This document shows, piece after piece, positions 47,604 to 48,053 of a DNA stretch of 64,000 nt (position 1 is the first letter of the stretch; each line of letters starts with the position of its first letter). The notes under the pieces are model-generated. The model ran no database searches. It was not told the DNA's origin and saw only the letters and a list, made by a program, of their open reading frames with translations. The DNA is from Deltaproteobacteria bacterium (GTDB lineage Bacteria > Myxococcota_A > UBA9160 > SMWR01): assembly GCA_032128375.1 (NCBI GenBank), contig JAQBGU010000107.1, positions 7,879 to 71,878 on the forward strand. Direction: 5' to 3'. Both the position numbers and the translations under genes were made by a program.

Positions 47604-48053
47604 ATGTCCAAGGGCATTCAGATAGCCATCGGTGCGACCGTGATTGCGGCGCTATTCGGCTGGTACGGGGCGACGACCCTGAAAGCGAACGCGTCGTTTG
47701 CCTATTTCGAGAGCCTCGAGGATTTCCAATCTGCGGGGAGCAGCATGGATGGCGCGCACGCTCGCGTCCACGGCTACGTGGCGAATGAATCGATTCGACG
47801 CGACGTCGCCGCAAAGGAAGTCTGGTTCCAGGTCCAAAACGACCCGCCGCACGCGGGTGGCGCTCCCGGCCTCACCCTCGAAGTCGTGCTGGCCAGCCTC
47901 GAGACGCCGGACCTGTTCAAGGACGGCGCCGAAGTGGTCCTCGAGGGCGTGCTGGTCGCCAACGGCTCGCGGACCACATTCGAAGCGGACAAAGTCCTGG
48001 CGAAGTGCCCCTCCAAATTCGAAGCCAAGGCGGCCGAGTCGGCGGCGCTCTGA
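47604..48053 (+). CDS. ccmE: Cytochrome c maturation heme chaperone CcmE, Cys-variant (CPSKF in place of HxxxY)
   Basis: N-terminal membrane anchor and OB-fold-like body. The C-terminal VLAKCPSKFEAK aligns with the canonical VLAKHDENYTP. Confidence 0.85.
   Translation: MSKGIQIAIGATVIAALFGWYGATTLKANASFAYFESLEDFQSAGSSMDGAHARVHGYVANESIRRDVAAKEVWFQVQNDPPHAGGAPGLTLEVVLASLETPDLFKDGAEVVLEGVLVANGSRTTFEADKVLAKCPSKFEAKAAESAAL

Follow-up and report, generated by a model that had tools for sequence, protein, structure and literature searches.

What does a CcmE do when its heme-binding motif has a Cys in place of the canonical His and, four residues on, a Phe in place of the Tyr? CcmE is the central heme carrier of System I cytochrome c maturation, and one such gene lies in the stretch of DNA analysed here (64,000 nucleotides, hereafter the window). 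An earlier note had proposed that it encodes a further, uncharacterised sub-variant of the chaperone whose usual axial ligand has been removed. The gene and the parts of its product on which the argument rests are as follows.

47604..48053, + strand: ccmE, 149 aa, Cys-type heme chaperone with a KCPSKFE tail (translation and Pfam)
47610..47678, + strand: N-terminal membrane anchor, residues 3-25, hydrophobic (AlphaFold2 helix 3-25)
47700..48002, + strand: periplasmic OB-fold beta-barrel, residues 33-133 (AlphaFold2 strands, Foldseek)
48003..48023, + strand: motif K134-C135-P-S-K-F139-E140, with Cys135 for His130 and Phe139 for Tyr134

The open reading frame at 47604-48053 (+) translates into 149 residues ending ...FEADKVLAKCPSKFEAKAAESAAL, of which the disordered tail reads VLAKCPSKFEAK. 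That this protein is a CcmE, as had been claimed, was borne out by the Pfam CcmE model PF03100, which matched at 61.5 bits against a cut-off of 24.6 (1.1e-16) and covered profile positions 2-98 of 99. The best score against the NCBIfam CcmE equivalogs (PRK13254 and related) was 33.8 bits, below cut-offs of at least 126; we presume that these models may have been built from His-type CcmE, in which case a low score is expected. Because the homologues are 147-150 aa long and share a conserved MSKG N-terminus, and because an AGGAAA Shine-Dalgarno-like motif lies 5' of the ATG, the ATG at 47604 is taken as the true ccmE start.

An AlphaFold2 model built with 56 homologues as input (mean pLDDT 80) placed barrel strands at residues 52-59, 65-67, 72-78, 91-96, 110-120 and 123-133, mostly with pLDDT 84-94, and predicted tail residues 136-149 to be disordered (pLDDT <50). 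The top Foldseek match of this model was the E. coli CcmE of the CcmABCDE complex (8ce8_E), and further matches were to 1j6q/1lm0 (TM 0.73-0.75), 1sr3 and D. vulgaris 2kct (TM 0.67), these being CcmE structures from Shewanella, E. coli and D. vulgaris. E. coli CcmE likewise begins with its N-terminal anchor (PMC10457321). As modelled, the anatomy is normal for a CcmE, with an anchor, an OB barrel and a flexible tail that opens with the heme-binding residue.

Cys135 (TGC, 48006-48008) stands directly after VLAK at the end of the barrel, the same place as E. coli His130, and Phe139 is encoded by TTC at 48018-48020. In a phmmer search against the PDB, VLAKCPSKFEA aligned without gaps to E. coli VLAKHDENYTP, so that C135 corresponds to His130 and F139 to Tyr134; the earlier note had read both residues correctly as a Cys-type site and a Phe at the place of the axial Tyr. 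All 87 clade sequences share the whole motif, Phe139 included, and Cys135 does not vary in either the Phe or the Tyr group. The note had also allowed that a Tyr in a shifted register might restore the normal CxxxY motif. We rejected both a register shift and an alternative Tyr, as the tails beyond the motif in the 87 clade sequences hold no Tyr, one His and no Cys, and the E. coli alignment is gapless. Its statement that a CxxxY variant is known from Desulfovibrio and some archaea agrees with published work, in which the Cys is required for heme attachment in M. acetivorans and is the covalent attachment site in D. desulfuricans (PMC9084895).

The note had further proposed that the frequency of CxxxF be checked by alignment. 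All 120 nearest homologues, down to an identity of ~62%, carry AKCPSKF, and CPSKF was present in 79/79 usable related genome loci despite synonymous codon changes at both residues (Phe TTC 75, TTT 4; Cys TGC 41, TGT 38). Of the representatives of 50%-identity clusters, those close by read CPSKF and those further off CPSKY. In a maximum-likelihood tree of 112 Cys-type CcmEs the Phe sequences formed a clade (SH-aLRT 97) of 49 rows, made up of 48 Phe sequences and one Tyr revertant (P0128), and its sister groups are Tyr-type. Outside this clade the tree holds four scattered Phe sequences, one of them annotated Chloroflexota, and one Met; the minimum number of changes at position 139 is 6.

We then took a census of the phylum in which 401 genomes were searched with the degenerate DNA patterns KCPSKF[E/Q/D/H] and KCPSKY[E/Q/D/H]. 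In the order to which the window belongs (63 genomes, ten families) KCPSKF was found in 61/63 genomes and KCPSKY in 0/63, whereas the sister family of the same class (14 genomes) had KCPSKF in 0/14 and KCPSKY in 13/14. Several further families had KCPSKY as well. With the patterns reversed as a control, 2 and 3 matches were obtained. Outside the order KCPSKF matched four times; three of these were inspected, and each proved to be a chance match in a short frame that does not encode a CcmE. The KCPSKY matches likewise include at least two that arose by chance. Given such chance matches, we trust the family-level blocks alone. Since KCPSKF runs through the order and KCPSKY through the sister family, the census and tree indicate that the Y-to-F substitution is an order-level trait that was fixed once.

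One reason for caution lies in the next gene of the operon, which together with the remaining ccm genes occupies the following positions.

48165..50127, + strand: ccmF (heme lyase), broken here by an extra T in a T9 run at 48562-48570
50124..52052, + strand: X, a conserved 642-aa membrane protein with a C-terminal zinc ribbon (synteny across the order)
52049..52777, + strand: ccmA (ABC ATPase), TIGR01189 1.6e-35, start candidates GTG 52049 and GTG 52058
52774..53430, + strand: ccmB, Pfam CcmB 9.2e-31
53527..54246, + strand: ccmC, Pfam Cytochrom_C_asm 6.4e-30, WWD motif WGHWWAWDPRL and both flanking His

One could read the frameshift at the T9 run as a sign that sequencing error or the loss of the system lies behind the Phe, or even behind the entire ccm operon. 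However, two other assemblies (L094 and L095), an NCBI MAG that is 99.87% identical and a Logan contig that is 99.99% identical, have T8 at this place and an intact CcmF of 653 aa, and the 80 related loci all have an in-frame ccmF. With T8 in two near-identical assemblies, the T9 in ccmF most probably arose through an error of assembly or a single slip. The Phe itself is universal in the order, and the genome encodes many cytochromes c with no alternative maturation system found. We therefore consider an artefact or a decaying gene to have next to no probability; a sequencing error or pseudogene is ruled out by the clade-wide Phe together with the intact ccmF in the near-identical assemblies.

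The remainder of the operon and genome fits a working pathway. The cluster runs ccmE-ccmF-X-ccmA-ccmB-ccmC, with ccmE first and divergent from an aminotransferase gene, and this synteny is kept in 80/80 related loci retrieved. CcmF, like CcmC, has a WWD motif with flanking His residues. The genome has one copy of CcmE, 15 cytochrome c domain matches above the Pfam cut-off and a CcmH-domain protein on contig C180 (53.7 bits against a cut-off of 25) that is present in 80/81 genomes of the class, and a genome search did not find ResB or System II. From the single CcmE, the cytochrome c domain matches, the lack of ResB and the CcmH-domain gene, it follows that the chaperone is needed, and the ccm system looks complete.

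The 642-aa protein between ccmF and ccmA consists of a signal or anchor, a periplasmic part rich in beta structure, a TM helix late in the sequence, a coiled stretch and the zinc ribbon. Its Pfam matches were only weak, and TIGR03142, a model of the CcmI N-terminus, matched residues ~512-601 weakly and below threshold (E = 0.007); the protein is possibly an analogue of CcmI. The Tyr-type sister family has a shorter, more divergent homologue at the corresponding place. No CcmD was recognised 3' of ccmC, and the sole PF04995 match in the genome is sub-threshold (21.3 bits, contig C70). At its C-terminus CcmC has an extra hydrophobic segment and an acidic coil, and these might take the place of CcmD.

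The CcmH-domain gene (L082 1408-1902; G000:C180:9170-9664) lies away from the ccm operon and adjoins a Mrp/ParA-like ATPase. Its Cys motif, LMSP[F/Y]CPGR(T/S)Lx(D/E)C, is C-x7-C as against the canonical LRCxxC, the first canonical Cys being replaced by Ser, and was seen in 36/36 inspected loci. This altered motif is found in the Tyr sister family no less than in the Phe order. We rejected a joint origin with Y-to-F for both the 642-aa gene and the unusual CcmH motif, since their presence in the Tyr-type sister family leaves them unlinked to the substitution. A third Cytochrom_C_asm (CcsA/CcmC-like) gene, for which no ResB partner was detected, is located at G000:C51:18507-19103 (L085). We also observed that many public MAGs with a Myxococcota-type ccm operon are titled 'uncultured Spirochaetales/Spirochaetaceae bacterium' (L003, L005, L018, L024, L026 and L030 are among these loci, and one isolate name contains MYXO); these titles look like taxonomy mislabels.

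If the gene is sound, the Phe could still be of no consequence, Tyr and Phe being functionally equal in Cys-type CcmE and Phe merely ancestral in this order. In E. coli, function is reported to survive removal of the Tyr side chain (PMC3601427), Y-to-F needs only one base change, and the change has occurred several times in the family, with at least six changes on the tree. Position 139 does not behave like a neutral site, however. Within the 49-row Phe clade, whose members diverge to ~55% identity, it underwent one F/Y change, while the freely exchanging F/Y sites 35 and 96 underwent 9 and 8 changes in the same clade and on the same tree, a difference that argues against simple neutrality. 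The opposite state is fixed as well, Tyr being found in 58/58 Tyr-type representatives. Neutral drift is thus, in our view, very unlikely. Judging by these substitution patterns, Cys135 and Phe139 are under purifying selection across the order, and the Phe is held rather than drifting, in a state that is locked by lineage. Such locking suggests co-adaptation with partner proteins.

Another way to account for the Phe is that the lost Tyr has been replaced, with His83 or else His56/Tyr58 ligating the iron of the released holo-CcmE. The candidate residues lie in two places.

47769..47777, + strand: His56-Gly-Tyr58 in barrel strand 1, His56 100% and Tyr58 97% conserved in the Phe clade
47844..47852, + strand: Pro81-Pro82-His83 in the loop N-D-P-P-H-A-G-G, inserted between strands 2 and 3

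When 87 Phe-clade and 58 Tyr-type sequences were compared, His83 was 99% conserved in the Phe clade, and the positions of His56, Tyr58 and His83 vary or are absent in most Tyr-type sequences. His56 and Tyr58 correspond to E. coli Gly63 and Met65 and follow Arg54 (E. coli Arg61) at +2 and +4, and they share its strand face; Arg61 had formerly been proposed for a heme platform, according to Shevket et al. (PMC6204919). The PPH loop is missing from the Tyr-type sister family and so arose on approximately the same branch as Y139F, and a loop-bearing Tyr-type group has Arg in place of the Phe-clade His. These observations would be expected of a substitute ligand, but others would not. The Tyr-type sister family also has His56, which is therefore older than Y-to-F. 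The Tyr revertant P0128 retains both His56 and His83. Neither residue accompanies every Y-to-F event, as four scattered Y-to-F lineages, one of them Chloroflexota, have neither His56 nor the loop. From general reasoning, we would expect the hairpin of strands 2 and 3 to sit at the far end of the OB barrel from the C-terminal tail, and Shevket et al. report no heme-binding site on the E. coli barrel. A compensated ligand is accordingly unlikely, although we regard it as worth stating in its sharpest form: the tail Tyr would have been lost and the His83 loop gained together at the base of the order, beside the invariant His56/Tyr58, giving a thioether-linked, His-ligated heme carrier. This conjecture is a little more doubtful again; if true, a His-ligated holo-CcmE would be a scheme not described for any CcmE and would change heme release from CcmC and hand-over to CcmF.

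The explanation that we favour, with good though not complete confidence, is that the gene encodes the functional System I CcmE of an uncultured Myxococcota bacterium, of the Cys-type ('System I*') branch and belonging to a sub-branch in which the +4 Tyr has become Phe. By analogy with D. desulfuricans, M. acetivorans and E. coli, CcmC would present heme at its WWD site, the Cys135 thiol would add to a heme vinyl, ATP hydrolysis by CcmA would free holo-CcmE, and holo-CcmE would pass the heme to CcmF for attachment at CXXCH. The iron of the released holo-CcmE might be five-coordinate, ligated by solvent or ligated by something else. As Phe is unable to coordinate iron, the role that is kept at position 139 is most likely aromatic, through packing against the porphyrin and orientation of the tail.

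For E. coli, models of release invoke a ligand switch from the second periplasmic His of CcmC to Tyr134 (PMC9616876). A Phe is unable to make this switch, so release in the Phe order must differ in some way. The report that the E. coli Tyr side chain is dispensable fits with a Phe139 that does not ligate iron, and because of it the loss of the axial ligand, which the earlier note had rightly placed at this residue, is less dramatic than the note implied. Shevket et al. (PMC6204919) describe Tyr134 as 'not essential', yet as mattering for efficient formation of holo-CcmE. Full function of CcmE in the order with no Tyr at this position is an assumption on our part.

The substitution has been mentioned before. 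Stevens et al. (2011) recorded Cys-type CcmEs with Y-to-F in four genomes (PMC3601427), and according to Shevket et al. (JBC 2018) the Tyr134 position is Phe 'in ~3% of cases' (PMC6204919). The earlier note was thus right to call the sub-variant uncharacterised in the biochemical sense, but it had not gone unnoticed. Because the CPSKF form is already in the literature, the finding is real but largely ordinary. What is new here is its fixation at the level of an order, the lineage-locked selection on Phe and the clade-specific loop with an invariant His83. Current models of CcmE release from CcmABCD rest on the Tyr134 ligand switch, and an entire order appears, from its genomes, to keep Phe under selection while encoding many c-type cytochromes. 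It may thereby serve as a natural experiment, suggesting that Cys-type CcmEs, at least, can do without the Tyr ligand. This should be useful for modelling heme hand-over, and it refines a known point rather than revealing a new system.

Compared with the CPSKF sub-variant of the literature, the motif is identical and the coexistence with CcmH is shared, CcmH having been reported for roughly one in three Cys-type systems (Stevens et al. 2011, PMC3601427); the literature gives counts only and names no lineage, whereas here we find fixation across one order of Myxococcota together with selection. Compared with the Cys-type System I* of D. desulfuricans and D. vulgaris (CPSKY, 2kct) and of archaea such as M. 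acetivorans (C120), our CcmE has the same fold (TM 0.67) and shares the K-C-P-S-K-x-E tail, with Cys for His, and the gene order ccmE-ccmF-(extra gene)-ccmA-ccmB-ccmC. System I* has Tyr at Cys+4 where the window's CcmE has Phe, and the barrel of the latter has the extra PPH loop. System I* was originally described without CcmH, whereas a CcmH-like gene is found elsewhere in this genome, and Desulfovibrio-type operons have ccmI between ccmF and ccmA where this operon has the 642-aa zinc-ribbon protein, which is not a recognisable TPR CcmI. Finally, the His-type CcmE of E. coli (HDENY; 1sr3 and 8ce8 chain E) shares the architecture and the position of the heme-binding residue at an identity of ~25-30%, with His130 replaced here by Cys and Tyr134 by Phe.
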